Shown: one piece after another, positions 28,642-64,000 of the stretch
How the letters are laid out: every line of letters starts with the position of its first letter
Position numbering within the stretch: position 1 is the first letter of the stretch
Source: Cyanidioschyzon merolae
Taxonomy: Eukaryota
NCBI GenBank assembly: GCA_000091205.1
Contig: AP006501.2
Strand: one strand, 5' to 3'
Length of the DNA: 64,000 nucleotides
Translations under genes and position numbers: made by a program
The notes under the pieces: model-generated
Seen by the model: the letters and a program-made list of their open reading frames with translations, nothing else
What the model was told of the DNA's origin: nothing
Database searches by the model: none

Positions 28642-29890
28642 TGGTGAACGTGGCGCCTGTAGCCGTGCTCTAGTATGTACTGAATCACAACGCTAGAGCG
28701 GAACACTAGATAAAACTGTACAAGCGCTAACAGCGCTAAAAAGGCAGCCGCTAGCGTCCGTGAAACGCTCGGTGGTCTTCACCACCAGACGGGAAACGAG
28801 TGCCTCGTTGTTACAACGGACACCTCGTTCACAAAACGCTCAGTCGAAACAGCAGAGACGCGCGCTTTCCCACCGAATACGATGAAGTCAGAAAAGGTCG
28901 CTCAGTCTCGCTATGGAGTCAGCGGCACACAGCGTAACAACGTCCACACCGCCGAGTACTCCCAGCTGGTGCGCTAACTGTGGGTGTACCCGCTGCTAGC
29001 AGGTGCCTCCCAGGCTCTCTAGAGACCTCGTGAGTTTCTTTCCGAGAAGCGTCGCTCAGCTCAGTCCTGTTCTGTGCACGGAACGTATTGGGTCGCGGTT
29101 GCCGCTGTCTGAAACCTAGCCAAAGCGCACCACCTTGAACTTTGACCCTTTTCGTGCCTAGGGGTCGTCCACAGGTAGGCACTGTTGTGGCGTGTTCGCC
29201 GCAGAGTTTTCCACGTTTTGGCTTTTATTGGCAAAGCGGAACGAGTTTCGTTGAGTTTGCGTTCCTGAGGCAGGTACGCTCAGGTTCTGTACCAGAATTA
29301 AGAGAATCAGGGGAATACCTATAGGAACTGCACAATATTAGATGCATACCCGCCTCCAGGCGTTATGATCTTGTAGAGCTATTCGAAGGTGGAAAACGTG
29401 TACGCTCCTTACGAAACACGTGTTTCGTTGCCAAGACTCTTCTAAGGAATAGGTGACTGCGATCAGCAATAACGCTAACGAAAAGGCGTGTGGCTCGAGT
29501 TAACCAAGATCAGCAAGCGTCCTTTTCACGGAGTAGGTGCGTGCTATTACCAGCAACGTTAACTAAAAGGCGTGTGCTCAGGTTTTGCAACGGGAAACGC
29601 GTTGCCTTTCCCGGGAACTTCGAGAACGCGCTCAATAACGTCTGAGGAAAGCACATTCGTTTCTGCGGGAGAAGCGTCACACTTACGTCGTTCTCGTTTC
29701 CGTCGGTGCCAGAACAGAGAGGAACCTCGTGAAACGAGATCGGCTTCCTATTCATACTCAAAAGCTCTGGTCCCGTGTACACATACGAGGGCTCAAGCAG
29801 CTCACCAAGGCGTCTCTCTGGACCGCTCAACGTGCGACGGCCTCCGCACTGCCTGCGTTGCCACCAGCACTCAACATCTGTAACGGTGCC

Positions 29891-32800
29891 ATGTGCCCAG
29901 AGACAGCTACGCCTCCGCAGGACGCCACTGCTGCGGCCGCATCGGAGACCTCGGGACCCCGAACGGGCTGCTGCTCCACAAGCCTGCAACATATGCCGCC
30001 CGGGCAGCAGCATGATACATATCTCTGTCGTTCGCAAATCATACCACTCCTGGAATGGATCGAGAGCGTCTCGGATTGTATGCTTGGAAACGCGAGTGGT
30101 AACCGCGTGGACGGCTGCTGCCCAAAGGCGACGGATGTGAACACCAGTCCCGCACCTAGAATACCTGATGCGAAAGGCGGGTATCAACGAATCAAAAGCA
30201 ATTCCTTGACATCAGAAGCGCTGTGCACGGCTCTCCATGCCCTGACAGAGGCTCGAACTCCAGCTGCCTTCCATGCCTGCACTCGACAAGCTTTTGGCAA
30301 GCTCATTGAAACCACGAGAGCGTATGTCGTAAGCGATACTCGTGAGGCGCCCGCGAACATGTTAGAACTTTTGCTCGATGTACTTTTGCTCACGGAGGTG
30401 GTTCTGTTTGGGAGCAATCTCATCTCCTCCTCGTTGCAGTGCACCTGGGTTACTTGGCTCGACCGGTGGCTCACCGTCTGGTTGGAACGCTGGGCCGCGG
30501 TACCGCGAAACACGGACGCTAGTGCTGCTGTGCGCCAGGTATACCAGCAAGCACGGTTGAGAGACGTGCTTTACGCATGCGAAACTGTCGCATCTGGTGC
30601 ATGTCAAACGGGAAAGAACCTAGCATTCGCTTTCGAGCGTTTGTCGTTACATCGAGCTGCTGGGGTAACCTCGCACGTATCGGGTACGGTGCATCAGGCA
30701 GGGTTGGTGACTCATGCCCTGTTGCATCCCGACTCCAAAACATCTCCGAGCGGCACGACGCTTCCGGGAAGCGCAGCGATGCTGGGTATCGAAAGCTGCC
30801 GCTCGTTATTGACGACTCAGGAGCCGCTTACGTCAAGCAGCAGCGGAGTCAGGCATTGTTCCACGGGCCGTGCTTCCGATTCGTGCTCGAATGCACACGA
30901 AGCACCAGCTACTAGAGCAGATGCGCACATGCTATTGCACGACGAGTTCCGGCAAGCCGAAGTTGACCTGGTTCGAGAATCCGCTGGCAACCATGCGGTA
31001 ATACCTGCTCCGAACGCGCTTACGTCCACCTTGAGCACGCAGCAATCTACCACGGACGACGCTCGGAGCGGCTTTGTCTCGACCTGTGCCGTAGGAGCAC
31101 TACCGCCGTCGTCGCCGACGTCGTCGTCGTCGTCGTCGACACCAACACCTCAACAGGAGGCGATATCCGCAGCGTGTGCTGCAGCACCAGCCGAGAGCGC
31201 TTGTGCACTGGATCATTCAACGCGAGCGAGTGCCTGGATGTGGCTTTTGGTTGTTCTTGGGCACCTGAGAGGCCCGCAGTCGACACCGTTTCCAATCGAA
31301 GATGATAGAAATGAGGCCGGTGTCTTGCTCTGGATGGCCTGCCTGGAACCGGTACAACTCCGCGGCCTCTACGCGCTCAGCAAGAGCAGCATCTTCCGCG
31401 ATGCTCTGCATCAGCATAAGAACTGGAATGAGTACGTTCCTCTACTGGTTCATGCCTCACTGCGGGAGTATGAAGCATTGCTCGCTGCGCGTTGTCGCCT
31501 AGAGCCATTCACAGTGGAGACAGCCATGGCCGAAGCTTCCACGCAGTGGAGGCTCCCTCCTGAGCTGTGCGATGACGTTGCTCGCTGTGCTTGTCGTCTT
31601 GCGAGTGAAGTGACTGGCCCAAGCAGCGTGCCGGTGCTTATGTCGCTGCTCTGTAACGAAACTGTGCCTCGAAGCGTCAGCTGGAACGCGGCAAAGTCCC
31701 TGGCGCTGCTCGACATTCGAGACGGCATAGCACCGTGGCATCGTCTGGAATGTCAGCGTCTGACTGCCTTCAGTCAGCTCGCTTATCTGCGGAGCAGGCT
31801 CGAGCATGACACCGAGGCTACACGAGAACTGCAAACAGGAACGGAGGAGGCCTCAGCGGTCTCTGCAGATTCGACAGAGGATCCCAGTGTACCAGGAAGG
31901 GCACTGGCTACTGTTGCCCGCGCTGCTGATCCTGCTGATGCTGGTGCTTCTTCAGAGGCGTTTTCCAGAAAGGAGCCGCAGCATTCCTGTTCCTGGCTCG
32001 CCAGTGCGGCACAGACGCTCGAGCGACTCCATCACGAGCATCCCACAGACCGTACGCTTCGCACGGTTGCAGCGGAAACACTTGCTTTGCTGGTAGAAAG
32101 AATTCCAGGTCAGCGATATGCCGAAGCGTTACTCCTGCGGCTGTTGATGGAGAGCACCGATCTTCCGGATCGCTTCTTTCAACAAAGCATTCAGAAAATG
32201 CATCGAGAGACGCTGGTGAGCGCCTGTACGTTGCCGATGCTCCAACAGATCTGGAGCAAATGCTGCAGCCTCATGCCCTGTCACTTTCGCTTCCTCCGTA
32301 TCATGGTCCAGGAAAACGGTGTCGATGCGATGCACGAAACTGCAGACGAGCTGCTGCAGCGGGCGCTCTTGGCATTGAATGACCATTCCATGATGTTGGT
32401 CAAGAGCGCTCTCGGCTTTCTGGAGGCTTGGTACCTCGCGGAGAAGCGTTTGCGAGCGAGAGGCGCGTCGATACCGACTTCGCGTCTTCTTGTCCGGATT
32501 GGTTGTTTCCTCCAGGAGTTTCTTGCTCGGAGTCCAGCGGAGCGCTATGTGTCCGCATCCAGACTGGGCGTCACGCTACTTCCGATGCTGCTGCGACACG
32601 GTGCTACCGTTCGGGAGCTCTGGGAGTGCCTCTGCGGGGCGCGTGACCCCAGAGAAGGCTCCCTGGAAACCACGACGGGCGCTCCACAGGTTTCTGGGAA
32701 GCACTGCGATTCTTCGGCTGATAGAACGCACGAGCACCAGCACCAGCATGAGCAAGTGCGGGAACGCTTCCATCGTGTCTTGGAAGGGAGCACGCTGCCG

Positions 32801-35800
32801 TACTTGTTGCTGCTGGTGACGGTCGCGCTCGTGCGAGCACGTGTCGTCACGCGCGTCGAACTTGTTGTTGTTGATGATGTCGAGAGCAACATCGGCGCAA
32901 CTGAGTATCAAGTTTGTGGCGAGCATCGCCAACATTATCTTACAGCACCCAAGCACGCTGCCCAGTGCCTTTTTGTGCCGCAATGGCTTGCCCAGTGGGC
33001 GCTCGCGCACGCCGAGGACACCATCGCCCTGGATGCCTTGTATCTTCTCACGCAACCGAATGTTCTGACGACTGCACCTATTCCATTAGGGCATCTGCAG
33101 CTACTGCTGGAGGCATTGCCAGCCTTGACTGTAGGCACGCTTGCACCGAAATCGACGCAGATGTTGCGTCAGTTCTTCATCAAATACATGGGTCCAGCTT
33201 GCCAGGCGCTGGTGCAGGGCTCTGGCTTCTGGGCGAGCGTCGGCTTCCTGCCAGGTACGGACTCGGCTGCGCAGGTACCTGACGCCGAGAGCTGGTCTGC
33301 CAAGCGTTCCGGTACATTGTCGAGAACGCGACCGGAGGAAGCCTTAACGAAAGCGGATGCAGAAGCTGCAGCAGCAGAAGCAACATTCCTGTCCCAGACT
33401 CGAGATGTGAACGTATCAGCAAAAGCAACGGCAGCAGCGGGGCCAGGCACGGCACCGGGAATGCAAAATGCCTCTGCTGTTGATATTGAAAGTAATGAAG
33501 TCATTTCCAGCAACCGCGATCTTTACGCTATACAGCTCGTGCGTTTTCTCAAGAGCTGGGTCCGTTTGCTGACGCTTCAGATCGGGCCTGGGGTGGGCCT
33601 GACCAGACGCCTCGCGGCAATATCTCTCTTGGAATCACTACCCGTGCAAGTCTGGCGATTCGTGGAGCACCAGTGTCCGCAACATATCCGTATCATGGAG
33701 GACTGCATCGCTGTCGCACTGGGGTGTCTTCTGGATCCCTATGACAGCATCCGGGTGCGGGCATGGGCGTTGCTTCGTAACCTTGCAGCCTACGCTGACC
33801 TGAACACGGTGATGAGGGTGCTCGTACCTACGGGGTCTGTTCTGGTACGTTCCTGGACGCGCAGGAAAGCGGACTCGGGAGCGCTTCTTCTGCGGACAGC
33901 TGTCATGTTCATGGACAAGGCTGCGAGCCCCAGGGCCTTGGGCAAGCTTGATGTTTCCCGCATATCACTGTGCAACGGGGTCGGCACACCAGCACAGGAG
34001 GCTCCCTCGCGAGTTACGCTACTGGAGGCACTCGCTACGATCCTTGCAAACGTTGACATCAAAAGGCATGGGGTCGTCCTTACCCTGCGGTATTTGCTGG
34101 ACGATTGTATGGATTCGGCAACGGGGCGATGGATCCAACCTCCCAAACCCAGTTTAGCCTCGTTGACGCGTCTGAGTCAGGCGTGCATTACCTTAGAGGA
34201 GCGCTGTTCCGCTCTATTCGCTACTCAGCACGATGGTTATGAGGCAGCTCTGCAGACGGACCCGCTTTCTGAGGACGAAGCGTTTGCGTCTACGGCGTCA
34301 GCGGAAGACACCCAAGACAGAGCCCATTGGGAAAACCAAACGAGCAACACCTCTCTAGTTGCTTCTGCAGAATTGGCGTACGATGCCGACGCAGAGGAAC
34401 GCGTAAGCGACGACTCTCAGGCAACCTGCGCAGAGTTTGCGCGACGCAGCACGCAGCACGGCGTCTTTCTCATCATCAGGGAGATTTGCTATATCACCAG
34501 CATTATCATCAGACTTCTGTTGGATGAATTTCATCCTGAGGAAAGCCTGGATGAGGCTTTCGTGGTTCCAAGTACCGCAGATTGGGTAGTAGGCGCTGCG
34601 GTATCGGTATCGCCGGCTACTGTTGCCGCTCTGGTCGAGTTTCTCACTGATTTTCTAGCGGGAATGCTGTTGCGCTATCGACATAGTGGTATTTGTGGCC
34701 ACGCGTCGATCTGTTGGCGGTCTGTCTGCAAGCAGTTGGTGAAGCATACCGACCCAGCGCTGCGGGCGCTTCCCAACCGGTGTCTGGACCTCATTGTACA
34801 ACGTCTGCACCACGGAGGTTTCGCTGTGCTGCGGCGCTCGGCAGGGCTTGCTTACCTTGTCCAGGGTGTCGTTGCGGCTTCCGCGAATTCTCCCTTGGAT
34901 GCACTTGTCGATGTGCTCTTGCGGATGGCTCGCTCCTGGTGCGACGGGCAAGCGCTTGGCAGTGTGCATGCGATGCACATCCTTCGTGCGCTCCTGCAGG
35001 ACGCATCCTTGACGCAGCGCACTGCACATCTCGTGCCGTTGGCGTTCCAGGTGGCTCTAGACGGATTCCAGGGCACTGCTCCGTGGATGATTCGTAACGC
35101 TGCGCTGCTTCTGTTGGCTGCCTGCATCCAGCGTATCCTAGGTGGTCAAATCGTCCAGGGCGCCACGGCATTCCGCGTGACAAACAAGACGAACAGAAGT
35201 CATGAACAGGGAAGCTCGGAGCGCACACTGCACGACTTGCCTGGACTCCAGACTCGATCAGGAGCCCGAACGCGTATAACTGATACCAATACCCAGGCGT
35301 TTCGTCTCGAAGCGTACTGGGAAGAGCCCCTGGTGCTCGTCCAGTCTCGCGCACTCACCATGGATGTTTTCCTTTCGCGCTACGCCGGAATCCTGGAGTC
35401 GTTGTGTCGTTTACTGCAGCAAGCGGCGGCGTCGACAACGTCAGCTTCTGTGCATCCTGGTGCTTTGACGGCTGTGTATCCAGTTCTTGTGCTGCTGTCG
35501 CGGTTAGCGCCCTTGTCGACGTCCACCGACGAGTTGGGCGATGGCGCTGCTTCATCCGCTGTCGCTTTTCCTGATCGACCAGAGGCGTTGTGCTTTAGCG
35601 GTCGCCGCTCTGTTCTTCGAATTCTGCTGGAGGCTGTAGAGCGTCTCACTGTCAGTGCTGAGGGTGCCGTTCGCAGGAAAGCCGCGCTCTGCTGGGCTAG
35701 GATCTGGCAAACCTGCTGCAGTGCGGATGCAGCTCCATGCCTGTGGCCGGACGATAGTACCGATGCTGCCGCTGTTCAGGGGATTATCTTGCGGCTTCGC

Positions 35801-37900
35801 TATTTGCAGGCCGTGGGCGCATGCCCATCCAGTGTTCGGGAGGCCTTTCAGAAACGTTTCAACCCAGAGAGCTTCGCGAGACGTTTCGGATTAGATGCCA
35901 CCATCGAGGCACTGCGTCTGTATGGAGAATTCGGGCTGCAGACAGAACCGTCCCAGTGGCTCTCCTTCTGCTCCTGGGCGGTGCGTCTGGCCTCCACGGA
36001 CGCCAGTGTACCAGCCATGATCATGGCTGCTTTAGCGCTGCGGCGTTTCTGCGGAGCCTGTAGCGCCGCATGCGCTATCCTTGACGACAATGAGTACGCG
36101 GAGGAGGCTCTTCGCAGTGCCGGTCCGACGTTCGCAGCGCGGTTCGAAATGAACGCCGCGCATGAGGAGCGGGTACCAGCGTCGTGTACAGACGCACTTG
36201 TGCTTTCGTATCTGTACTCTGTAGCGGCGACATGTCCTTTACCAGAGTTGGTCGCTACTGCACTGCAGCTTGCTCAGGAGCGATCACTGGGCGGTATTCC
36301 GTCGGCCTGGATACCGCTTTTGCTGCGCCAGCTGCGCTACAGCTCGAACCTCTGTGTGTTGGCGGCAGCTTTGCGCTGGATAATCCAAACGTCACCAGAT
36401 CATCCTGCATTTTTCCCCGCTGTTTGGCGGCACTACCTGGCAGCTGCACACACGAGTACCACACTCGGCGACCTGGCCTTGGAAGCGCTTGGTAGTTTGG
36501 TCCACGATGCCCCCCGGGCACGCCAGTGGGTCCAAGCCCTCGAGGCGCTGAGGCACTCAGCGTACGCAGGAACCCCACAGGCACCCCGCGTTTCAGTTGA
36601 ACGTCGCCTGGCAATGACTCGTTCGTTGCAAAGGGCGTTTTGCTGCAATTACTGGAGGATGCCGGAACGCACTCTCGCAGCATTTTTTTGGAGCGAGCGC
36701 CTACGCATCCACGGGGTCTGCTGGCGCCTTCTCGGTGACGACGAAGAGATCGTCCGGTGCGAGGCTCGCCGTGCTGTGGCTCTTTTCTGGGGACAGCCTC
36801 TGTATGCGACGCTTCGCCGGGGCTACCTCGAGCAGCAACTTGCGAGGGATCTCGTGTACGCAATCCTCCAAGAGCAAACCGAGATGATTCCTGCACCCTA
36901 TAATACAGACGACGCAGCGCTATCCACGTACTTGATTGGTACGTGTATTGGGGCGGTGCATCAGCACAACTCGTTTTCGAGCCAAGTATCGGTTCAGGCT
37001 GCGTTAGAAGGACAGAGTACCATGGAAAGACAACGTTGCCAGAGCAGATCTGGACCTGGGTATTGGCATCTATTGTATAGTTCTGATGATCTGCATGTAT
37101 CTGACGTTGAACCGCTTTCTGCTGAACAGCTAGCGCTCTACGTACAAGTGATGCTGAAGCAGGCGCGCAATGGACGTCTATGTGTTGGCGGCTCTGGAGA
37201 GGCGATGTCTATACAAGGTGCGTTCAGCGCGCATGCAAATCTCTTTCGGATACCGGATGCTGTGTCTGCCAGGTTCAGTGACAAACGTGCACTGCCACAA
37301 ACGCCGTCATCGGTACCATGGGCTGCGTCCCAAGCGCCACTTCATGGACAGGGATTTGTCGATTTCGGGCAGCACGTCCGAGGCTACGCTTTGGAGACTG
37401 TGCGTGCATCTTTTCGGGAACTTTTTGTGGAGACGCTGAAGGCGGCGGCCTCGGAGGCATCTGCGCCTCCAGCTGAGCTGCGGGAGTCAGTTCCTCGCTG
37501 TCCTACAGACGAACGTGCCTTTTCATATGCATCGCTCACCGGTGCAGATTCGCGTCTGGAACAGCTTGTGAAAGGTCAGTTTCAGGCAATGCAGGTGCCT
37601 GACGTCTTTTCCAAGCGGTATCGTCTCTGGATGCAGCGAGTGATGGGTTTAGAGCATACAGAGAGCGCGTCGTTGGACGAGTTCTCTGAACTTGATCTGG
37701 CACCAGCGCTCTGGCGGTGGAGTCGGTGTACGACACAGCAAATGCTTTGTCCTCAACGTGCCAATGCTTTGCGTGACGTGGAGGAAGAAAGGCATTCCGC
37801 CGCTCGTGCTTCTTGTGAAACAGTGATATCGAACACAGACGATCAGCCTGTTTGGTATCTGCTTCCAGTGAGCAGAATTGGCGTCAAAGAGAATCTATAG
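29891..37900 (+). CDS. giant (~2,670–2,720 aa) single-exon helical-repeat (HEAT/ARM-like) protein of unknown function
   Basis: An uninterrupted 8.2-kb ORF cannot be chance at this GC content. It is Leu/Ala-rich with amphipathic-helix periodicity throughout. Ser/Thr/Pro low-complexity inserts occur (SSPTSSSSSSTPTPQQ, encoded in part by a (GTC)n run at ~31115). The ORF-track start at 29729 is GTG. The first ATG is at 29891. No catalytic motif such as a kinase, HECT, RING or peptidase was recognised. Confidence 0.6.
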   Translation: MCPETATPPQDATAAAASETSGPRTGCCSTSLQHMPPGQQHDTYLCRSQIIPLLEWIESVSDCMLGNASGNRVDGCCPKATDVNTSPAPRIPDAKGGYQRIKSNSLTSEALCTALHALTEARTPAAFHACTRQAFGKLIETTRAYVVSDTREAPANMLELLLDVLLLTEVVLFGSNLISSSLQCTWVTWLDRWLTVWLERWAAVPRNTDASAAVRQVYQQARLRDVLYACETVASGACQTGKNLAFAFERLSLHRAAGVTSHVSGTVHQAGLVTHALLHPDSKTSPSGTTLPGSAAMLGIESCRSLLTTQEPLTSSSSGVRHCSTGRASDSCSNAHEAPATRADAHMLLHDEFRQAEVDLVRESAGNHAVIPAPNALTSTLSTQQSTTDDARSGFVSTCAVGALPPSSPTSSSSSSTPTPQQEAISAACAAAPAESACALDHSTRASAWMWLLVVLGHLRGPQSTPFPIEDDRNEAGVLLWMACLEPVQLRGLYALSKSSIFRDALHQHKNWNEYVPLLVHASLREYEALLAARCRLEPFTVETAMAEASTQWRLPPELCDDVARCACRLASEVTGPSSVPVLMSLLCNETVPRSVSWNAAKSLALLDIRDGIAPWHRLECQRLTAFSQLAYLRSRLEHDTEATRELQTGTEEASAVSADSTEDPSVPGRALATVARAADPADAGASSEAFSRKEPQHSCSWLASAAQTLERLHHEHPTDRTLRTVAAETLALLVERIPGQRYAEALLLRLLMESTDLPDRFFQQSIQKMHRETLVSACTLPMLQQIWSKCCSLMPCHFRFLRIMVQENGVDAMHETADELLQRALLALNDHSMMLVKSALGFLEAWYLAEKRLRARGASIPTSRLLVRIGCFLQEFLARSPAERYVSASRLGVTLLPMLLRHGATVRELWECLCGARDPREGSLETTTGAPQVSGKHCDSSADRTHEHQHQHEQVRERFHRVLEGSTLPYLLLLVTVALVRARVVTRVELVVVDDVESNIGATEYQVCGEHRQHYLTAPKHAAQCLFVPQWLAQWALAHAEDTIALDALYLLTQPNVLTTAPIPLGHLQLLLEALPALTVGTLAPKSTQMLRQFFIKYMGPACQALVQGSGFWASVGFLPGTDSAAQVPDAESWSAKRSGTLSRTRPEEALTKADAEAAAAEATFLSQTRDVNVSAKATAAAGPGTAPGMQNASAVDIESNEVISSNRDLYAIQLVRFLKSWVRLLTLQIGPGVGLTRRLAAISLLESLPVQVWRFVEHQCPQHIRIMEDCIAVALGCLLDPYDSIRVRAWALLRNLAAYADLNTVMRVLVPTGSVLVRSWTRRKADSGALLLRTAVMFMDKAASPRALGKLDVSRISLCNGVGTPAQEAPSRVTLLEALATILANVDIKRHGVVLTLRYLLDDCMDSATGRWIQPPKPSLASLTRLSQACITLEERCSALFATQHDGYEAALQTDPLSEDEAFASTASAEDTQDRAHWENQTSNTSLVASAELAYDADAEERVSDDSQATCAEFARRSTQHGVFLIIREICYITSIIIRLLLDEFHPEESLDEAFVVPSTADWVVGAAVSVSPATVAALVEFLTDFLAGMLLRYRHSGICGHASICWRSVCKQLVKHTDPALRALPNRCLDLIVQRLHHGGFAVLRRSAGLAYLVQGVVAASANSPLDALVDVLLRMARSWCDGQALGSVHAMHILRALLQDASLTQRTAHLVPLAFQVALDGFQGTAPWMIRNAALLLLAACIQRILGGQIVQGATAFRVTNKTNRSHEQGSSERTLHDLPGLQTRSGARTRITDTNTQAFRLEAYWEEPLVLVQSRALTMDVFLSRYAGILESLCRLLQQAAASTTSASVHPGALTAVYPVLVLLSRLAPLSTSTDELGDGAASSAVAFPDRPEALCFSGRRSVLRILLEAVERLTVSAEGAVRRKAALCWARIWQTCCSADAAPCLWPDDSTDAAAVQGIILRLRYLQAVGACPSSVREAFQKRFNPESFARRFGLDATIEALRLYGEFGLQTEPSQWLSFCSWAVRLASTDASVPAMIMAALALRRFCGACSAACAILDDNEYAEEALRSAGPTFAARFEMNAAHEERVPASCTDALVLSYLYSVAATCPLPELVATALQLAQERSLGGIPSAWIPLLLRQLRYSSNLCVLAAALRWIIQTSPDHPAFFPAVWRHYLAAAHTSTTLGDLALEALGSLVHDAPRARQWVQALEALRHSAYAGTPQAPRVSVERRLAMTRSLQRAFCCNYWRMPERTLAAFFWSERLRIHGVCWRLLGDDEEIVRCEARRAVALFWGQPLYATLRRGYLEQQLARDLVYAILQEQTEMIPAPYNTDDAALSTYLIGTCIGAVHQHNSFSSQVSVQAALEGQSTMERQRCQSRSGPGYWHLLYSSDDLHVSDVEPLSAEQLALYVQVMLKQARNGRLCVGGSGEAMSIQGAFSAHANLFRIPDAVSARFSDKRALPQTPSSVPWAASQAPLHGQGFVDFGQHVRGYALETVRASFRELFVETLKAAASEASAPPAELRESVPRCPTDERAFSYASLTGADSRLEQLVKGQFQAMQVPDVFSKRYRLWMQRVMGLEHTESASLDEFSELDLAPALWRWSRCTTQQMLCPQRANALRDVEEERHSAARASCETVISNTDDQPVWYLLPVSRIGVKENL

Positions 37901-54827: not shown

Positions 54828-55903
54828 ATGCAAGCTCTTTTCGTTTTTGTCCCGTTGTACCAGGAAAGACACATTGTTCGCGCGCGCGCTGCAACTCGAG
54901 CACGGTTCCCGCTACGTACCGCACGTGACGGGTGCTTCGCAGACGGACAATGCCACCACTGTCAGCATCCGCTTCCCTTGTTAGTGCAGCCCTCGCCTGT
55001 AGCACGCCGGCACCACGCTCTGCATCTTCGTATGGGCCCGAAACAGTCGCAGGTCGCCGTGATCACTGGCGCGTCCTCTAGAGTCGGTCTGTATTCCGCT
55101 CGCGCTCTGATCAGCAAGGGCAACTGGCACATCGTCATGGCATGTCGTGACGTCGACCGGGCGGAACGCGCAGCAAACAGCGTGAACCTTCCAAAGGACG
55201 CCTATACAGTGCTGCATTGTGATCTGGCTGATTTCGCCTCTGTGTTGAAGTTTGCGAGAGAGCTATCGAGTGTGGCGCGCGTGGATCACCTGGATGCCCT
55301 GATCTGCAATGCCGCACTCTGGCATCCGCGGGACAAGAAACCGCTTCTCACGGTGGACGGCATCGAGAAGGCCATACAGGTTTGCTATCTGAGCCATTTG
55401 CTTATATGTCGGAGGCTATTGCCGAAGCTGAAAGTATCGCGCGGGCGCATTGTGTTTCTGACGACTCAGACCCATTCGCCGAATTCGTTGCCGGGAAAGA
55501 TTCCCCCGCAGGCTCGTCTCGGTGACTTGTCTAGTCTAGCCGCGGGGCTTGGTCCGCGGACGACGGGCATGGTGGACAGTGGCCCGTTTGAGCCCACAAA
55601 AGCCTACAAAGACGCCAAAGCCGCGAACGTTTTATCAATGAAGGCGCTCAGTGATCGATACGGCCGCGACGGGGTGACCTCTGTGGCGATTTTCCGGGAT
55701 GTGTCGCCGACAGCAACCTCTTCCGCGAAAAGCGTGGCTGGTTCCGATACGTATTCTTCCCGATTCTTCAGAAGTATATCACTCCGCAATACGTTCCGAA
55801 TGACGAGGCCGGCCGCCGTGTAGCCGAAGTGGCGACCCAGGGACAGTTCCCGGACTCGGGCTCGTATTATCAGTGGCGTGGCAAATATACGTATGGGGGA
55901 TAG
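54828..55903 (+). CDS. POR: light-dependent protochlorophyllide oxidoreductase (LPOR, SDR family) homolog with an apparent 1-nt frameshift near 55695
   Basis: The LPOR alignment runs full length. VAVITGASSRVGLYSARALISKGNWHIVMACRD matches ViTGASSGLGLaTAKALAetGkWHViMACRD. The LPOR-specific insertion loop (…PPQARLGDLSSLAAGL…KAYKDAKAANVL) is present. In frame 0 the ORF reads …GVTSVAIF, then the homology continues in frame +2 as PGCVADSNLFREKRGWFRYVFFPILQKYITPQYVPNDEAGRRVAEV… (cf. [47 protein letters not shown]). It ends at TAG 55901–55903. One C missing from ttcc(c)ggg at ~55695 explains the shift. The ~68-aa N-terminal extension MQALFVFVPLYQERH… resembles a transit peptide. Confidence 0.75.
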
Positions 55904-56182: not shown

Positions 56183-57804
56183 ATGTGGAGAACCAAAATT
56201 GCTTCGCAAGTCAGAAAGCGTACTGCAGTAGTGATTAATATAGCTATAGCTATGACCTACTTCGCATCGAATGCGCCAGAGACTGCCAACTGTGGTCGTT
56301 CAAGAGGGCAGAGCGCGTTTATTTGGGTAATTTTGTGCGGTGAAGAATACGGCAATAGAAGCGCACTTGCAGACGTTTGAACGATCTGTGGGTATTCGAT
56401 ATCAAACTGGGTCAACGGGCGTGGATTAATGGAAGCTCGGTAGTGAATACTCTAGCAGTATATGGGGCATTGAGCGAGTCAGGCCCGAATAGTGTACCAA
56501 GTACTCGCTATGGATCAGCTTTCTGGGACACTAGTAGGACTGATCCGATCGTATTTGTTGGAAATGGATACATAAACACGAGCGGCAGTGACTTTCTCAA
56601 TGATGTCTTTGCATTAAAGAAAACATTCCCTACTCCAACACCAAAAACTTCGCGGACACCTACCCCCATCTGCTCCAATGAGCTCTGCGGATCTCCAGGA
56701 CAGTGCATCAACCAGGACGCTTGCGAGCAAGTCGGGTGCTGCTTTAACTCCCAGACGAACGCTTGCACCCTGAAGAGCGTCTCAGCGGCGTGCAGCGCTG
56801 TTGAAGTGACGCAGCGCGTCACCTGCGGCTGGAGCTACATCTACCCCGACGAGTGCACTGCGATACCGGGATGCTGCTGGCAGCCCACAGCGAACGGCAT
56901 CCTGGCACCCTGGTGCTACTACGACATCAACCATGCACCGCAGGCTTCCGTAGCGCTGCAGGAGATGCAGGCACCGGTTCCCGTCTGCGCATCACCGGGA
57001 GCGCAGCGCCAGCCATGCGGCGACGCGGGTATCAACCAGTTTACCTGCTATGCCCAGGGCTGCTGCTACGACTCGCAGGCGCAGAACCAGTGGGTGCAGA
57101 ACGGCAAGCAGCAGAGCGACTTTGCGTCGAACCCGTACTGCTTCCAGCCTGAGAAGACGTGCGCGGTGGGCGAGTTTGAGCGCCAGCCGTGAAATAACGT
57201 GGTGAATCAGAACCAGCAGCGGAGCAACAATAACATCAACAGTAGCCAGTTTGTGCGTCTGCTGAACACGGTCCTTTACGGAGAGCAGCACGGGACGCCG
57301 CGCACGAGCTACGCGTCGCAGCAGTGTCTGGAGGCTGGTTGCTGCCTGGGGATCGGCAACGAGTGCTTCCAGCCGGTTACCGAGTATGTTTGCCAGACCT
57401 ATGGGTATGCGTCGAACTCGCTGAGCGGCACGACCGGCAAAGTGTCGAACTCGACGTATATTCCATGCGGCTCCGAGTGCTGCAACGCCGAGACGCAGAA
57501 CTGCACGTAAAACCCGTTCAGTAACAACAATAACCAGCAACTGCAGCAACAGCAGGTGCTGTTGCCGTCATTCTGTGTGTGCAAGGACCCTACAGTTCAG
57601 TCCGGGACGTACCTGATCGCTTCGGATAACCTTGTGCACAAGGTGCGTTGCTGCCGCTCTGGCGAGGAGTGCATCAACAACAAGTGTATGATGATTAGTC
57701 CTACGCCGTCTCCGAGTGCCGTTATTGCGACTGCAACTGCGTCTGCAAGTGCGTTGGTATTGGTGTCGACCTCGACGCGTGCCTCAGCAAGTACTTCAGT
57801 ATGA
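56183..57804 (+). pseudogene. Kelch-like + triple trefoil (P-domain) cysteine-rich, S/T/P-rich membrane/secreted protein gene, disrupted by one 1-nt frameshift and two in-frame stops
   Basis: The ATG at 56183 is followed by a hydrophobic anchor AVVINIAIAMTYFASNA and a Kelch-type repeat (RGQSAFIWV…GNRSALADV). The frame shifts at ~56376, where gacgttt(t)gaac is missing one T, and continues NDLWVFDIKLGQRAWINGSS…VPSTRYGSAFWDTS. Three trefoil domains follow. The third is CASPGAQRQPCGDAGINQFTCYAQGCCYDSQ…NPYCFQP. It carries R-x-x-CG and GCC(Y/F)D and ends in CF, the WCF position of the consensus. The same frame continues through a TGA at 57190 and a TAA at 57508 into more Cys-rich sequence. It ends with a Ser/Thr/Ala tail. 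Confidence 0.45.
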
Positions 57805-58487: not shown

Positions 58488-60677
58488 ATGCGAAAAAGGT
58501 ATTTTTCTATTGTGAGACTCCTGGTTATAGTATTGGTTGTGTCGGGAACACACACAGTTCGTGGAGTTTTGTCCGCAGAGAATACTGTATTATGGACCTG
58601 GATCGGTGGTAGTAGCTCTAACGGCAGTTCAGGTAGCTACGGTGTTCAGGGTGTGCCGAACACCAGCAACGTGCCTCCGGCGCGGTACGGTGCGGCCTTC
58701 TGGACCGGCGCTGACGGGGTGCTCTGGTTGTTTGGTGGTGGCAGCGACTTGAGAGACGTCTTCGGTGATCTCTGGAACTACAATCTAAGCACGTTCTCTT
58801 GGACCTGGGTTGGAGGCTCTGCATCCCTCAACTCTGGAGGGGTATACGGCTCCCTCGGAGTTCCCAACAAGAGCAACTATCCGCCTTCGAGGACGGAATC
58901 CGCTGCTTGGAGTGACAGCAACGGAAACCTTTGGTTATATGGAGGCTGGAATTTGAACTTGGGCTATAGTGATATGTGGATGTATAATGTATCGTCGGGC
59001 GAGTGGACATGGGAGCAGGGATCCAACAAGACCAATGTTTCCCCGACATATGGTCCTCTTGGGAACTCGTCTGCAAGCAACACGCCTGGCGCTCGTTTCC
59101 AACCCGCGACCTGGGTTGGCCTAGATGACCAGTTTTATCTCTTTGGTGGATTTAGTCCTAGTGGTACGTATTACGGTGACTTGTGGCAGTACAACACAGT
59201 GACCAACGAATGGAGCTGGATAGGTGGCACTCAACAGCTGTCTCCCTCTGGAAGCTATGGTGCGTTTCGCCAGGCATCGCCGAACAGTTATCCCGCTGGA
59301 CGTTTCGGAGCCACCTCGTGGCGAGACCTTGATGGGAACTTTTGGCTATATGGCGGTTTGGGAGAGATTGACGCAGTTGGCAGCTTTCTCAATGATTTAT
59401 GGCTGTACAATATCAGCTCCAAAGAATGGACTTGGATGTCTGGAGATGACAGTGTTGGCTCAAATGGGGCAGTATACGGCGAGAAAGGAGTGCCGTCATC
59501 GAGCAACACTCCGGGGTACAGATCCGGTTCCTCTGGATTTGTAGACTCGTCAAACACTCTGTATCTCTTCGGTGGTGTTTCACGCGGCGTCTGCAACGAC
59601 CTGTGGACGTTCAATATAACGAGTCTTGAATGGACTTGGGTAGACGGTGACGATACAACGAATGGAGCCTATAGCTACGGCGAGGTTAACAAGACAAGCA
59701 ATACAACGCTTCCACCTCCGCGATACGATGCAGTTCTTTGGAATACCGATCAAAACGACCCGGTCCTATTCGGAGGCCTCGGTAGCTCAGGTAGCTATAA
59801 CGACCTCTTCACATTATACATCGCAGCACCGACGCCTACACCGACCGCAACACCGACTCCGACGGCCTCACCGACGCCCTCCGTTACTGCAGCACGGTCG
59901 GCAACGACAAATGTGACGCAGACCGCTGTAGGCGAAGGCTCTGCGGTCTGCTTCCCCGCGGATGCCTCGGTGCTGATCGATGGTCTGGGCAACCATCTGC
60001 AGATAAGCGAGCTTCGATCAGGTATGGCCGTGATGGGCGTCAATGGGCGCGGGCAACTGGTCGAAGATAGTGTACTAGGATGGTTGCATAACGAGCCCGG
60101 CGCTACTGCAGAGATTCTGGCGATCAAGACGCTTTCCGGAAAGCAGCTGCGTCTGACGAGACAGCATCTGGTATATCGAGTGATCGAACACTTTAGAGAC
60201 TTTGATAGTATGATGACCACTTTCTCGTGTATTTCACAGAAGCAGCAGCAGCAGCATCAGAAGCACATACGTCGGAGCCTTGAGTTGGGTACCACCGCCG
60301 TTGAGGCAGTTTTCGCGGAAGATATCCGCGTTGGCGACGCTCTGCTGGACGTTGCTGCGCACCTGCCGGACCCCGTGGTGGCAATCGAGACAGTAGTTAC
60401 GCACAATGGTCTCTATGCGCCGTTGACTCGCTCAGGGCGCCTTGTGGTCGACGGCGTTCTCGTGAGCTGCTACGGGACGTACGCATCGCATGCCGTGGCC
60501 CATGCAGTGTTGTGGCCTGCGCGGGTCGATGCTCTGCGCAAGGTATGGACATCAGGGCTCGGCACAGAGGGTATTGTGGGTATCATGCCATACGCAGAAA
60601 GGCTCTATCACATTTGGACGAGTGCAGCACGTGTTTTAACGGAGGCTCGCGTAAGTGTTGTAGTTGCAGCCTGCTGA
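58488..60677 (+). CDS. Hog-type protein: signal/anchor + 6-blade Kelch beta-propeller + Thr/Pro linker + C-terminal Hint (Hedgehog/intein-like autoprocessing) domain
   Basis: The start is an ATG. The N-terminal hydrophobic segment is IVRLLVIVLVVSGT. Kelch repeats recur about every 50 aa with a W.W(I/V)GG…YG..G…P.RyG…W…g.L(W/Y)l(F/Y)GG…DLW.YN motif. A linker APTPTPTATPTPTASPTPS follows. The Hint domain starts at Cys (nt 59949). CFPADASVLIDGLGNHLQISELRSGMAVMGV…ILAIKTLSGKQLRLTRQHLVY matches Hedgehog CFPGSATV.leqGGtK.vkdL.pGDrVLAad…ie…t.ltltAaHLlF. NGLYAPLTRSGRLVVDGVLVSCYG matches GaYAPLTaqGtiLinrVLASCYA. Confidence 0.75.
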   Translation: MRKRYFSIVRLLVIVLVVSGTHTVRGVLSAENTVLWTWIGGSSSNGSSGSYGVQGVPNTSNVPPARYGAAFWTGADGVLWLFGGGSDLRDVFGDLWNYNLSTFSWTWVGGSASLNSGGVYGSLGVPNKSNYPPSRTESAAWSDSNGNLWLYGGWNLNLGYSDMWMYNVSSGEWTWEQGSNKTNVSPTYGPLGNSSASNTPGARFQPATWVGLDDQFYLFGGFSPSGTYYGDLWQYNTVTNEWSWIGGTQQLSPSGSYGAFRQASPNSYPAGRFGATSWRDLDGNFWLYGGLGEIDAVGSFLNDLWLYNISSKEWTWMSGDDSVGSNGAVYGEKGVPSSSNTPGYRSGSSGFVDSSNTLYLFGGVSRGVCNDLWTFNITSLEWTWVDGDDTTNGAYSYGEVNKTSNTTLPPPRYDAVLWNTDQNDPVLFGGLGSSGSYNDLFTLYIAAPTPTPTATPTPTASPTPSVTAARSATTNVTQTAVGEGSAVCFPADASVLIDGLGNHLQISELRSGMAVMGVNGRGQLVEDSVLGWLHNEPGATAEILAIKTLSGKQLRLTRQHLVYRVIEHFRDFDSMMTTFSCISQKQQQQHQKHIRRSLELGTTAVEAVFAEDIRVGDALLDVAAHLPDPVVAIETVVTHNGLYAPLTRSGRLVVDGVLVSCYGTYASHAVAHAVLWPARVDALRKVWTSGLGTEGIVGIMPYAERLYHIWTSAARVLTEARVSVVVAAC

Positions 60678-63600
60678 GCTGGCAATCTGCCCTGCAGGAC
60701 AGGGGCGAACAGTACCGATGGTACCACTCTAGGTGCTGCTTTTTCTGCCATAGGATAGTGTTTGAGCAATGATGGTAAAACGCGCTCTATCGCGAAAAAG
60801 CATCCCGCAGCATATTGCCAGGCATTTTTGATATGTGATGGTACCAGATCCACTTATATAAACGAGCGGAGTTGCAAAGAAGTATTCGTGTGTGTGAAAT
60901 CGAGGCACGCCGCGAAATACAGTTTTATGTACCAAGATGTACTGTAGCGCCAATACTTGCGGAGAGCAATAGCAGCAGCTGCCGGTTACATGAGACTGAG
61001 TGAGCAGAGGTTTGCATGCATCTATGCTTCGAAATAGTATTGTGGCTGGGGAGTTGTGGAGCGCTCCGCTCGAATATACATTCAGATATGAAAATTGGCT
61101 CTTAGCACTGGGGCGTGGTTCTTGGAACGGTGCAGTGAGAGCGATAAGGATTTCACAGTTGGGAAGATACGAGAAAAATCTATGAAAATTGTTTCAAGAA
61201 AGAAGAGCTGTATTGAATGCAATATGATCAAGATTCGCGACTGAATGTGGAGAAATAGAATTGGTTATAGTCGTACAATTCTACAGCTCCTGCAGTGGAA
61301 AGCATGAAAACGGAAAGTTATAAGGCCAAGGAGTAAATATCTCACGGTTATTCCGTTGATGCACTGCAGATGAGAAGGACTGCCAGGAAAAATATCGGCA
61401 GTGAAATGAACCTGGCTGTCAGTAGACTTCACTAGAAAGAACGTAACCACAGCCTGATCCCCATAGTTATAAGGCAGAGTGTACTGTGCCAGAGGCTCTG
61501 CACACTGCTCCAAACTTTGTGTAAGAAGATGTTTATATTTATGTTCTGGTGCCCTGGAGGGTGCACAGTATGTATATACTTCATAATTAATGTAAAGCAA
61601 GTTCCCGTGCTGATGAGCTCAGTCGTGCCAGTCCTGCTGATCGCACAAGGCAGCCTACTGGTAGCAACAAACCGGTGCTTATGGAACGATCGACCTGAAT
61701 GGGCCTGTCGCCACGACTCCGACCGACGAGGCGTACCGCAGAGCGAATCCTGCATACAGTGGAGCTAGTCAGAAAGTCCATGATGTAAGTCTAGATGAAG
61801 CTCAAGTGGGCGCGCGACATTCAACTGGTACCTTGGAGTTTGCTACAGTCTCGTCCTGACAAGCTCCGAGTCAGCCGCGGTACACGCGTTTGGAGTTGTT
61901 CGAGTTCTGGCTCTAGTGCGTTTATCGGCATAAACCGCTACATGTCCGGAGTGAGCTACAGGTGAAGCCAGTCTGTGCTTTGTGGATACGCAGCAGCCAG
62001 CATGTGCCAGGAGCTGCATCCGGTAAACTCTGGGTCATAAGGAATGAAGGCGAGACGCCAAGCAGCAAGCTTTGAACAATAAACAAGAGGCAAGGACGCT
62101 AAGGTCAGAGTTTGGGTGCTCGCGATCTTTGCCTCCAACCAAGCATCCCTGAAGCAGCCGCAAGCAGACTTGTATGGGCGAAAAGCTCATTGTCATATCG
62201 GGGCCAGCTGCTCTTTGATGCCGAGGCGGCGCGGTGGCTGATTCCGCCTTCCAGGAACGGTAGCGCGGAACAGTGCTATTGCTACTCTAGAGATGTGTAG
62301 GGGCAATAACTAGACAGATTAGTGAACAGTGGTTCGTGAATTCAGTGTACGCGTACAAGAAAGAGCATAGGGAACAGTGTTGTGCGTGAATCCAACAAAT
62401 CAGAATACAGACCAGAAAAAGAGGCCTCGATCATGGTCTGTTTCTAGTGCACATGTGGTTCCCTGCATTCTGCCCTGCGACAATGTGTTCATTCCTGTAA
62501 ACAATCTATATGGATGGTAAACAATGTTGGATCTCAGCTTGTATGAGAATATGCCTGGTACCGCAAGCACTACCGAGGCGATGCGCTGAGGTGCATTGCT
62601 AGACCCTAAAGATCGGCACGGGGGAAGAGTAATCAGCTGTACTGGATCTTCTCAACTTCACTGGAAACGGTATCCGAGTCGGAATGCAGAATACGGGTCG
62701 GCAGCAGAGAAACAGATATAACGTACGCTTAGCGCCTGTGGATGCTTATGGTAAGGACGCGAAGCTAGACGTACATTCAAATACTGAATGGACCCAACAA
62801 ATTATATCCATGTACCTTGTCTGAACAACCACGGCACGCGCATCGATACGAAGGGTCGCTTTCCCGTATAAGGCGATTCCTCCGGAAGCCTGCCCTGTCG
62901 ACGTGCGACGCGCAGCTGCTGTTCGCAGTGGCGCCAAGTCCGGTCTGCTGCGTGCTGCATAGCGACCGCGCAAAGTGATTACGAGCGCCTCCTACACAAT
63001 GATCGGTAAGCCGAAAAGGAGATTGGAGCTCCTAATAGAAGTAACGTGCCCACCGCTACTGTATTGCTGCCTGAGACCCAAGGGCCGGGTCGTCTTTTTT
63101 TTCCAACATTGCTCTCGGATCATCCATGAATCGGATCCACACGCAGGCAACAACAGGTCCCGGACCTACAAGCTGTCGACGAAGAAACCGCACCAGAGTC
63201 GCCTGGAAGCTAGCCACTAGCAAATTTGAGCTTAGTTACGGCTAGTGCTAGGAACGCTGACAGGGAAGAGATAGAGTTGCAACTGAGAAGATGTTCCAAA
63301 AAAGATATGTAGCTTTGTGCTTGCAGCTGAGTAGGGTGACTTACAGCAAGTTCATAACAATGAAAGAAATACGAACAATGATGACTACTGTGGATATTCG
63401 GAAAGCTCTGAAACGCGGTGGATATGAATGTATGGACGAAGGGCTTGCAAACAACGATCAAAATCGTGTGAAGAAACACGATGAGGATAGTAGAGTTCCT
63501 AAGCGGAGCAAACAACGCACACAGCCACTGTGCTGGTCTGAAGTCGCAGATAATTGAAAGCTCAACAATACCAAGCCATGTGCAAATGTAAGGCCATTCT

Positions 63601-64000
63601 TTAGGTACGAAGGGAACACAATTCGCCAAGAATATAAGCAGAAATATATCGAAAATAACATGAAAAGAGCACTTTCTTTGTTCGGTTAAGATATTTGTGT
63701 GACAATGGAGACAACCTAGCACCGAAAAAGCAGCATTTAAGTACTGTGAGATGTTGAGAGAAGAAAACGGGAACAAAATATGGTGAAGAACGACACAAAC
63801 GAGAGCAACGAAAGCTCGCGGGCGATTCAGACCACGAGCGACAGCCGGGGCCCAAAAAATAGGAAACTACGAGGCGGTCACGCTAAAATGCATCGATAAT
63901 ACTGCGCGTACTGGAGTATCCAGGTGGCAACACACAGAAATATGATGAAAAAGATTCCCTTCGGACCAATCGCTAGAGACATTAATACTGGAATGGGGGG

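Follow-up and report, generated by a model that had tools for sequence, protein, structure and literature searches.

Hog proteins inside and outside animals

Hog proteins, which carry the Hedgehog-type Hint domain, have been described across protists, red algae included (Burglin 2008), and the non-metazoan ones (in red algae, mosses, alveolates, cryptophytes and others) place the Hog part after a lineage-specific secreted N-terminal region (Burglin 2008). An exhaustive profile search made here returned about 8,700 representative clusters of Hog-type proteins; together with the protist Hogs of Burglin (2008), that number contradicts the first-pass annotation of this DNA, which had called Hog proteins rare outside animals. 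In Cyanidioschyzon merolae there is a subtelomeric Kelch+Hint family ("K+H" or "K+Hog"), already published along with its linker and with expression chiefly in the haploid phase (Nozaki 2007; Cho 2023; Plant Cell 2026). Its members have been annotated since the genome papers (Nozaki 2007), and the C. merolae "hedgehog" genes have been reclassified in the literature as non-Hh Hog. For expression, the Plant Cell 2026 supplement gives CMF001C 10-14 TPM in the diploid and 367-420 TPM in the haploid phase, and CMC002C about 2 and about 207-225 TPM, respectively.

The reference chemistry is that of animal Hedgehog, for which the active site of the Hint domain, including the catalytic C143, has been defined (PMC12054796). 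Two Hedgehog variants bear on what follows: D46H/D303H keeps cholesterolysis and accepts a broader range of sterols, and D303A abolishes native autoprocessing, a defect that a hyper-nucleophilic sterol substrate rescues.

For the C. merolae genome the literature already covers the gene described here, from its architecture and subtelomeric amplification to its classification as Hog, and little is added to this as a finding; the novelty implied by the first-pass annotation gives way to the published record on family, architecture and classification. The value of the K+Hog family is as a test system: a full Hedgehog-type active site, a natural His base, a conserved tail and high expression in one phase come together in a transformable alga. 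To our knowledge, neither cleavage nor adduct has been determined for any non-metazoan Hog protein, and a literature search found no published cleavage or adduct experiment for red-algal or cyanidiophycean Hogs. The identity of the group on Val487, the residue before the predicted cleavage site, would tell whether sterol-linked anchoring is ancestral to Hedgehog signalling, and since C. merolae is genetically tractable, the lipidation reading is directly testable. Were sterol lipidation true, cholesterolysis in the manner of Hedgehog would be older than animals and would have served generally to anchor proteins at surfaces.

A Kelch+Hog gene at the right end of chromosome 19

The DNA analysed (the window) is 64,000 nucleotides long; positions below refer to it, and the gene with its parts, the telomere unit and the upstream trefoil frame lie on its + strand. 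The methods were Pfam, Rfam and tRNA scans, phmmer, tblastn, AF2 models, Foldseek and the profile search. Rfam and tRNA scans of the whole window gave no match. The neighbouring genes encode exact matches to C. merolae 10D chromosome 19 proteins (BAM83033, -35, -37, -38 and -42) and the very end of the window holds one telomere repeat unit, AATGGGGGG (63992-64000), which together place the window at the right end of that chromosome. Both the repeat unit and the place of 19R among the chromosome ends with PH elements are given by Nozaki (2007).

The gene itself (58488-60677, stop included) is an intact single-exon open reading frame that runs from ATG to stop over 729 amino acids, free of frameshifts and internal stops; its limits come from the ORF list, and from its stop codon to the terminal AATGGGGGG there are 3,323 bp. 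The encoded protein is a Kelch propeller with a Hedgehog-type Hint (Hog) domain, and the Kelch and Hint matches, by profiles and by models, are far above chance level. Five 10D paralogs that carry the annotation "similar to hedgehog protein" (CMF001C/BAM79404, BAM79709, BAM81404, BAM80407 and BAM82656), all subtelomeric, with the same architecture and a tail ending in AAC, match it at 88-92% identity over the full length, and it differs from them by point substitutions alone. K+H genes of Cyanidiococcus also share the architecture, at 43-45% identity. The protein is, close to certainly, a non-Hedgehog Hog protein of the C. merolae subtelomeric K+H family, namely the copy at the right end of chromosome 19. 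The order of Kelch propeller, mucin-like linker and Hog proposed at first pass is the one described as K+H by Cho (2023) and as K+Hog in Plant Cell 2026.

Counting genes from CMS497C/498C, the gene is probably CMS508C. The exact 729-aa protein is absent from the collection of 15 billion proteins searched, so the link to CMS508C is one that we infer. CMS508C belongs to Hog orthogroup OG0000014.

A POR-like SDR gene lies upstream (54828-55823), and the K+Hog gene has its place in the terminal element (PH element) shared among chromosome ends. Two inverted matches of 29-31 nt, at similar offsets, connect it with the Hint-coding region. They were rejected as chance matches: a tblastn comparison gave nothing there that codes for Hint-like sequence, and over 11 kb a few 12-mer seed hits would arise at random.

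A secreted Kelch propeller on a Thr/Pro-rich linker

The N-terminus looks like a cleavable signal peptide (aa 1-26; 58488-58565), composed of MRKR, a hydrophobic core and VRG, with V following the predicted cut. The hydrophobic stretch (aa 5-26, up to the same VRG) is the sole one in the protein. Its reading as a signal peptide comes from paralog CMF001C/BAM79404, which is identical over the first 29 residues and is scored SP(Sec/SPI) by SignalP 6 in the Plant Cell 2026 supplement. What had been taken at first for an N-terminal anchor is thus better described as a predicted cleavable signal peptide. All 13 N-glycosylation sequons (NxS/T) lie upstream of Cys488, 12 of them in the Kelch propeller, and the Hint half has 0.

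The cargo of the Hint domain is a six-bladed Kelch beta-propeller (aa ~33-443; 58584-59816). Several Pfam Kelch families match (for example PF24681 at 4e-36, and Kelch_4 with 5 stretches), the blade motifs W[TS]W and D[LM][WF] occur six times each, and the AF2 model of the propeller (pLDDT 70-92) matches, over aa 40-445, six-bladed Kelch propellers. The Foldseek matches include KLHDC3, LZTR1, KLHDC2 and Keap1, with target TM 0.7-0.8 for KLHDC3, LZTR1 and Keap1. The six blades counted in the first-pass annotation are borne out by motifs, profiles and fold alike. Among the 150 closest Hog representatives, the Cyanidiococcus K+H representative alone has Kelch cargo. The nearest non-cyanidiophycean matches to the Kelch domain are all bacterial or metagenomic, and no discussion of its horizontal transfer was seen in the relevant papers that a literature search turned up. 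Such a transfer may be considered, but the 36-39% identity recurs in several blade registers, and the similarity is therefore that of a common repeat consensus.

A Thr/Pro/Ala-rich linker (aa 444-487; 59817-59948) connects the propeller to the Hint domain and ends in GEGSAV487. Its 44 residues include 12 Thr, 7 Pro and 9 Ala, in agreement with the Thr/Pro-rich, mucin-like linker proposed at first pass and with the T/P/A linker already described for the K+H family (Cho 2023); its length differs among homologs. The composition suggests a mucin-like stalk, at whose C-terminus Val487 would carry any adduct.

The Hint domain and its junction

Pfam Hint (PF01079) matches aa 485-709 with E=5.1e-33 and 114.9 bits (cutoff 29.7), over profile positions 10-207 of 213, and phmmer against SHH (7e2i) gives E=2e-9. 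In the full-length AF2 model the Hint half reached a pLDDT of 20-30, and the domain was modelled alone, which gave 83-95 in the core. The top Foldseek matches of this model are the Drosophila Hh Hint domain (1AT0, E=1.2e-11, target TM 0.87) and 6TYY (E about 1e-11, target TM 0.87). Profile, fold match and alignments to Shh and Drosophila Hh place the Hint core at aa 488-666 (59949-60485). Profile and structure were among the checks proposed at first pass, and both agree with a Hint domain, the profile far above its cutoff.

The same alignments locate the active site. Cys488 takes the place of the Hint nucleophile C1, opposite the GCF of Shh and Drosophila Hh, and the predicted scissile junction is Val487-Cys488 (codons GTC TGC; 59946-59951). 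His534 (60087-60089) stands at the general-base position D46, in WLH as against FLD and FMD. T557 (60156-60158) and H560 (60165-60167) belong to the TxxH block, which reads LTRQHL here and aligns with LTAAHL and VTPAHL (T69/H72). C661 (60468-60470), in the SCY motif, is the equivalent of C143. The catalytic Cys, Thr and His expected at first pass are thus at their aligned positions, with C661 in addition, and the TxxHL and SCY blocks (LTRQHL and S660-C661-Y662) were likewise read correctly. Other details need correction: the supposed "L.pGD.V" motif is in fact LRSGMAV, and the junction given as Gly before Cys-Phe has Ala486-Val487 before Cys488-Phe489, so that the Gly-Cys-Phe processing site is missing. 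The bond proposed for cleavage, between the Cys of AVC and the Phe of FPAD, lies one residue too far, since the mechanistic bond joins Val487 to Cys488.

A similarity search with the Hint half alone gave 9 close relatives, and the wider Hog set came from the exhaustive profile search. C488, H534, T557, H560 and S660-C661-Y662 are invariant in a set of 9 family members, the most distant of which is 43% identical. Column statistics were taken over the 150 closest Hog representatives, with the counts for Cys1 and the following Phe made on the 139 aligned ones: Cys fills the C488 column in 139 of 139, and Phe comes next in 138. The residue before Cys is variable among the 150 (Val in 31, Gly in 40), the D46 column holds His in 113 and Asp in 34, and the C143 column holds Cys in 65 and Thr in 74. 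An exchange of Asp for His as general base was weighed as a novelty and dropped, His being the majority state in related Hogs; both His at this column and a variable residue at -1 are typical of non-metazoan Hogs. Unlike other red algae and mosses, which have Ser, Thr or Asp at motif J (Burglin 2008), the present protein keeps Cys. By alignment, then, the general base would be a titratable residue, His534, rather than Asp. The beta-branched Val at -1 may slow the acyl shift relative to the Gly of Hedgehog; Val is common there in Hogs.

Compared with animal HhC (Drosophila Hh 1AT0, human SHH), the domain has the Hint fold, the Cys-Phe start, TxxH, SCY and AH..P.R, and its predicted chemistry would be shared too: an N-S acyl shift, then attack by an activated hydroxyl. 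It differs in having Ala-Val rather than Gly-Gly before Cys, His rather than Asp as base and a 42-residue Gln-rich insertion, at about 24% identity. Unlike animal Hh, the protein carries Kelch cargo in place of the HhN "Hedge" signalling domain (there is no Pfam HH_signal match). Judged from its residues, it is not a bona fide Hedgehog ligand precursor, having neither HhN domain nor Gly-Cys-Phe.

With inteins and BIL domains it shares the Hint fold, the TxxH block and an expected first-step N-S acyl shift at Cys1. It departs from inteins in having no C-extein, terminal Asn or +1 nucleophile, and it ends in VVAAC after the tail. The intein N-terminal model TIGR01445 scores 21.4 bits, below its cutoff of 24.5, and fold matches to inteins and BIL domains have E-values 1000-fold weaker than those to Hh, although BIL domain 6y75 is among the structural neighbours. 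An intein reading was rejected on the missing C-extein and the score below cutoff.

Insertion, tail and the choice of acceptor

Two regions set the end of the protein apart. A variable Gln-rich insertion (aa 565-606; 60180-60305) follows directly after TxxH, where it appears as a gap in the Hh alignment and has no Hh counterpart; invariant columns make up only 5% of it, identity to the distant homologs is 19-41%, and its pLDDT is below 50. The tail (aa 667-729; 60486-60674), by contrast, is conserved and ends in an invariant Ala-Ala-Cys: 48% of the columns in its 63 residues are invariant, and helices are predicted in a low-confidence model (pLDDT ~50). Its start aligns with the Hh motif SCYA..AH...AP.R and onward, and the Pfam profile reaches into it (to 207/213). 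The tail is predicted to be the positional equivalent of the Hedgehog sterol-recognition or adduct-recognition region. Along the protein, the fractions of invariant columns in Hint core and tail (0.53, 0.55 and, for the tail, 0.48) are about twice that of the Kelch cargo (0.27).

The explanation that best accounts for these features overall is that the chromosome 19 K+Hog copy is secreted, that its Hint domain cleaves itself and that the Kelch fragment is lipid-anchored, which we consider probable. The signal peptide would bring the precursor into the ER, where propeller and linker would be glycosylated. The Hint domain would then carry out an N-to-S acyl shift at Val487-Cys488, with T557 and H560 assisting, and the thioester might be handed on to C661. 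That the 729-aa protein self-cleaves is likely, the residues being observed and their activity predicted from them. In a last step, the conserved tail would hold a nucleophile with a hydroxyl group, for which a membrane sterol is the most plausible candidate, and His534 would activate it. C. merolae is predicted to have a sterol pathway, and the sterol as acceptor is a tentative assignment that falls somewhat short of an even chance. By this route the Hint fragment would be discarded, and the propeller, on its mucin-like stalk, would be displayed at the plasma membrane with Val487 ester-linked to a lipid. Given that the paralogs are mainly expressed in the wall-less haploid phase, such a product would be a lipid-anchored coat or adhesion module of naked, acid-dwelling cells. 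The full proposition, that K+Hog is the first non-animal case of Hint-mediated lipidation, with a His-type Hog esterifying the Kelch-stalk to an algal sterol through Val487 and so coating the wall-less haploid cell, is a doubtful one. By our own reasoning, an ester-linked anchor may be short-lived at pH 1-2 and 40-45 C, which counts against lipid anchoring.

The tail and the base are also what weighs on self-cleavage that stops short of lipid transfer. Here the thioester would be hydrolysed, a soluble glycosylated Kelch propeller would be released to the medium or to a periplasm-like space, and the Hint domain would be a self-removing maturation or secretion module. The catalytic set for forming the thioester is complete, as this reading needs, many protist Hogs do without a C143-type Cys (Thr in 74 of 150), and Burglin (2008) coined the neutral term "adduct recognition region"; yet the ~63 residues after the Hint core are conserved like the catalytic core, which is hard to explain without recognition, and His534 is invariant even though hydrolysis alone needs no D46-type base in Hedgehog. 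We regard simple hydrolysis as unlikely.

More improbable still is transfer to an acceptor other than a sterol (another lipid, a glycan hydroxyl, or a protein amine as in BIL-type Hint), by which the propeller would become covalently joined to another surface component. What speaks against it is that the sterol-recognition region still opens with the SCY...AH...P.R motifs and that the nearest matches in sequence and fold are to Hedgehog HhC, not to BIL domains or inteins; 6y75 among the structural neighbours, the broader acceptor tolerance brought by the D46H swap in Hedgehog, and a tail that diverges from the animal SRR past its first ~25 residues speak for it.

An upstream trefoil remnant and the state of the gene

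Directly upstream of the K+Hog gene, within the same subtelomeric block, one frame (56377-57804) holds what is left of a last Kelch blade, followed by a TP linker and by P-type (trefoil) domains, as recognised from ORFs, Pfam Trefoil and tblastn. Pfam Trefoil matches at 1.3e-18, with 3 stretches on read-through, and by tblastn Kelch blade 6 and the linker share 35% identity with the K+Hog protein (E=2e-14). In-frame stops at 57190-57192 and 57508-57510 interrupt the trefoil reading frame.

Those two stops next door, a position 3.3 kb from the telomere and the absence of the exact protein from the public collection would fit a decaying or inactive copy, a redundant duplicate near the telomere whose expression or processing has ceased. 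The K+Hog frame, however, is full-length with neither frameshift nor stop, all its catalytic residues are intact, and its paralogs are highly expressed. Its own substitutions point the same way: 24 residues are unique to the chromosome 19 copy as against the five paralogs, 20 of them in the Kelch domain or linker (mostly in blades 3-4 and the linker) and just 1 in the Hint core outside the variable insertion. Decay of the gene is accordingly the least probable reading by a wide measure, and hardly to be expected.

The remnant belongs with the Cyanidiales subtelomeric Kelch+trefoil (K+T) proteins, which have the same type of Kelch propeller and T/P linker as K+Hog and differ in their C-terminal, Cys-rich trefoil domains, which stand where K+Hog has Hint. 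With trefoils in place of Hint, no autoprocessing would be expected of K+T proteins, and these are reported to be mainly expressed in the diploid walled phase (Plant Cell 2026).

A Kelch–Hint fusion

The Kelch plus Hint/Hog gene (K+Hog; 58488-60677, + strand) is an intact 729-codon open reading frame with both its ATG and its stop, and its product joins a Kelch propeller to a Hedgehog-type Hint domain, as the first-pass annotation had proposed. The fusion is real and far above chance. In Pfam, the Hint profile (PF01079) matches residues 485-709 (profile positions 10-207 of 213; E=5.1e-33; 114.9 bits, cutoff 29.7); several Kelch families also match, among them PF24681 (4e-36) and Kelch_4 (five stretches). 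Direct reading of the propeller (58584-59816, + strand) finds six copies of each blade signature, W[TS]W and D[LM][WF]. Searched against PDB sequences with phmmer, the protein hits human SHH (E=2e-9) as well as Drosophila Hh, and SAVCFPADASV falls on GGCFPGSATV in the alignment. Two details of the earlier reading need correcting: the junction given as G|CF or C|F is A-V|C-F, placing the predicted scissile bond at Val487|Cys488, and the motif rendered L.pGD.V is LRSGMAV.

The structure models agree with these assignments. In a domain-only AlphaFold model (aa 472-729) the Hint core is confident (pLDDT 83-95). The model most resembles the Hint domain of Drosophila Hh (1AT0, the best match) and the D46H mutant of that domain (6TYY), with E about 1e-11 and a target TM of 0.87; inteins and BIL domains rank lower. 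The full-length model is good only over aa 40-445, a region that matches the six-bladed Kelch propellers of KLHDC3, LZTR1, KLHDC2 and Keap1.

A described family

Calling this a Kelch-Hog protein was correct, and the protein is an already known object: Kelch + trefoil (K+T) and Kelch + Hint (K+H) fusions, the two halves joined by a Thr/Pro/Ala-rich linker, are the commonest duplicated subtelomeric genes of Cyanidiales, Cyanidioschyzon having 11 K+H copies and Cyanidiococcus 3 (Cho et al., 2023). The linker here has 44 residues (12 Thr, 7 Pro, 9 Ala). In sequence and fold, the protein has every feature by which the Cyanidiales K+H family and the Hint core of the Hog/Hint family are recognized. 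Its nearest relatives are five full-length C. merolae 10D "similar to hedgehog protein" entries (88-92% identity), followed by Cyanidiococcus "Hint domain-containing" proteins (43-45%). Following Burglin 2008, they have been reclassed as Hog proteins distinct from Hh; C. merolae has 17 Hog genes, the majority expressed in the haploid phase (Plant Cell 2026). Orthogroup OG0000014 holds 13 C. merolae genes, including CMS508C (Plant Cell 2026 supplement). Gene counting from CMS497C/498C places our gene at CMS508C; we infer this locus name because the exact 729-aa sequence is absent from the protein collection.

Outside Cyanidiales, the ~110 best matches to the propeller (58584-59816) are Kelch proteins that come without exception from bacteria (Bacteroidota, Planctomycetota, Sumerlaeota and others) or metagenomes, and many of them carry T9SS sorting domains. 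They are 35-40% identical to it, and against a Dinghuibacter protein this identity recurs in several blade registers. This likeness could reflect a bacterial origin or only a shared repeat consensus.

Active site and conservation

The Hedgehog Hint active site comprises C1, D46, T69, H72 and C143 (PMC12054796). The aligned residues are, in order, C488, H534, T557, H560 and C661, so that the anticipated catalytic Cys, Thr and His are all in place; the five are invariant in 9/9 family members, down to 43% identity. The first-pass annotation called Hog proteins rare outside animals; they are instead widespread (Burglin 2008), and searching 1.84 billion representatives with a profile (E<=1e-3) found about 8,700 Hog-type proteins. 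Among the best 150 of these, the general-base (D46) column holds His in 113 and Asp in 34, so the Asp-to-His difference is no anomaly. In experiments, Hedgehog with this change (D303H/D46H) retained its structure, its pKa and its cholesterolysis activity, and took a wider variety of sterols. In the same 150, residues before the Cys include Gly (40), Val (31), Ala (22) and Ser (16), and motif J (C143) has Thr in 74 and Cys in 65.

Bona fide Hedgehog proteins have an HhN domain and a Gly-Cys-Phe site; K+Hog has neither and is therefore not one of them. The intein reading was rejected: inteins carry a C-extein, which K+Hog lacks, and the intein N-terminal model scored under its cutoff.

Invariant columns are unevenly spread: they make up 27% of the Kelch region, 16% of the linker, 53% and 55% of the N- and C-terminal halves of the Hint domain, 5% of the Gln-rich insertion and 48% of the 63-residue C-terminal tail, so the autoprocessing module and tail are more strongly constrained than the cargo. 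The gene might be a silent, decaying copy, but this is unlikely because the frame is intact and the pattern of substitutions speaks against decay.

The Gln-rich insertion (aa 565-606; 60180-60305) lies right after the TxxH block and is modelled with low confidence; animal Hh has no such insertion, and in Cyanidiococcus both its length and its sequence are different. The C-terminal Ala-Ala-Cys (here aa 727-729; 60666-60674) is nearly invariant: it is shared, even at 43% overall identity, by all Cyanidiales K+H and Hint-only homologs complete at that end, save one with Val-Ala-Cys. It is absent from the two most distant Hogs.

Proposed processing

Secretory-pathway hallmarks are restricted to the N-terminal fragment (487 aa; 58488-59948, + strand). 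The only hydrophobic stretch is the N-terminus, previously called an anchor and most likely a cleaved signal peptide. Its first 29 residues are identical to those of the paralog CMF001C (BAM79404, our P0002), for which SignalP calls Sec/SPI (Plant Cell 2026 supplement). All 13 N-glycosylation sequons (NxS/T) precede Cys488, and the Hint-plus-tail fragment (242 aa; 59949-60674, + strand) has none. This asymmetry is consistent with a mature product that is glycosylated and a processing domain that is discarded.

The precursor would enter the ER and be glycosylated, an N-S acyl shift would occur at Val487|Cys488, and a hydroxyl nucleophile activated by His534 would resolve the thioester. The Hedgehog-type catalytic residue set is complete, and self-cleavage is likely. 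The conserved tail occupies the place of the sterol/adduct-recognition region, and a cycloartenol-route sterol pathway is predicted for C. merolae; a sterol would be a plausible acceptor, which we propose only tentatively. Its rivals are cleavage followed by hydrolysis only, and transfer to a non-sterol acceptor. CMF001C reaches 367-420 TPM in haploids vs 10-14 in diploids (Plant Cell 2026 supplement), and paralog expression in the wall-less haploid is in keeping with a propeller displayed at the cell surface on a mucin-like stalk and anchored by a lipid.

The chromosome end

Five neighbouring ORFs exactly match C. merolae 10D chromosome-19 proteins (BAM83033, 83035, 83037 [CMS497C], 83038 and 83042; record of 1,282,939 bp), and the 3' end of the window reads ...GGAATGGGGGG, the C. 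merolae telomere unit being AATGGGGGG (Nozaki 2007). Because of these neighbours and the terminal AATGGGGGG, the window is the right end of chromosome 19. Upstream of K+Hog lie a ubiquitin E2 gene, the gene of a short-chain dehydrogenase resembling POR, and a trefoil gene; E2, POR, trefoil factor and hedgehog protein genes are among those listed at chromosome termini, and 19R is named as an end with a "PH element", a shared terminal element (Nozaki et al.). The exact K+Hog (58488-60677) and POR-like (54828-55823) proteins are absent from a collection of 15 billion proteins in which the five internal neighbours are exact: either the public set lacks these subtelomeric copies or the assembly version differs there.

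A distance of 3,323 bp separates the K+Hog stop codon from the telomere repeat. In the intervening 3.3 kb (60678-63991) we found no long ORF, tRNA, Rfam match or internal repeats, and no nucleotide-level match elsewhere in the window. Directly upstream of the gene, a frame at 56377-57804 (+) encodes trefoil (P-type) domains preceded only by a TP linker and the last blade of a Kelch propeller. It lacks a start region and a signal peptide, and two in-frame stops (57190-57192 and 57508-57510) interrupt it; it looks like either a 5'-truncated, decaying Kelch + trefoil copy within the subtelomeric block or a short trefoil-only gene with a degenerate tail. Two inverted matches pair the POR-like gene with the Hint-coding region (55314-55344/59943-59973 and 55703-55731/60310-60338; 74-76% over 29-31 nt, similar offsets). 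A link was rejected: seed matches occur in the number expected by chance, and by tblastn the POR region holds no Hint-like coding sequence. Elsewhere, and not related to K+Hog, 29729-37900 (+) is a single intron-less, unusually long ORF of 2,723 aa with THADA/Trm732 domains (DUF2428, 4e-27).
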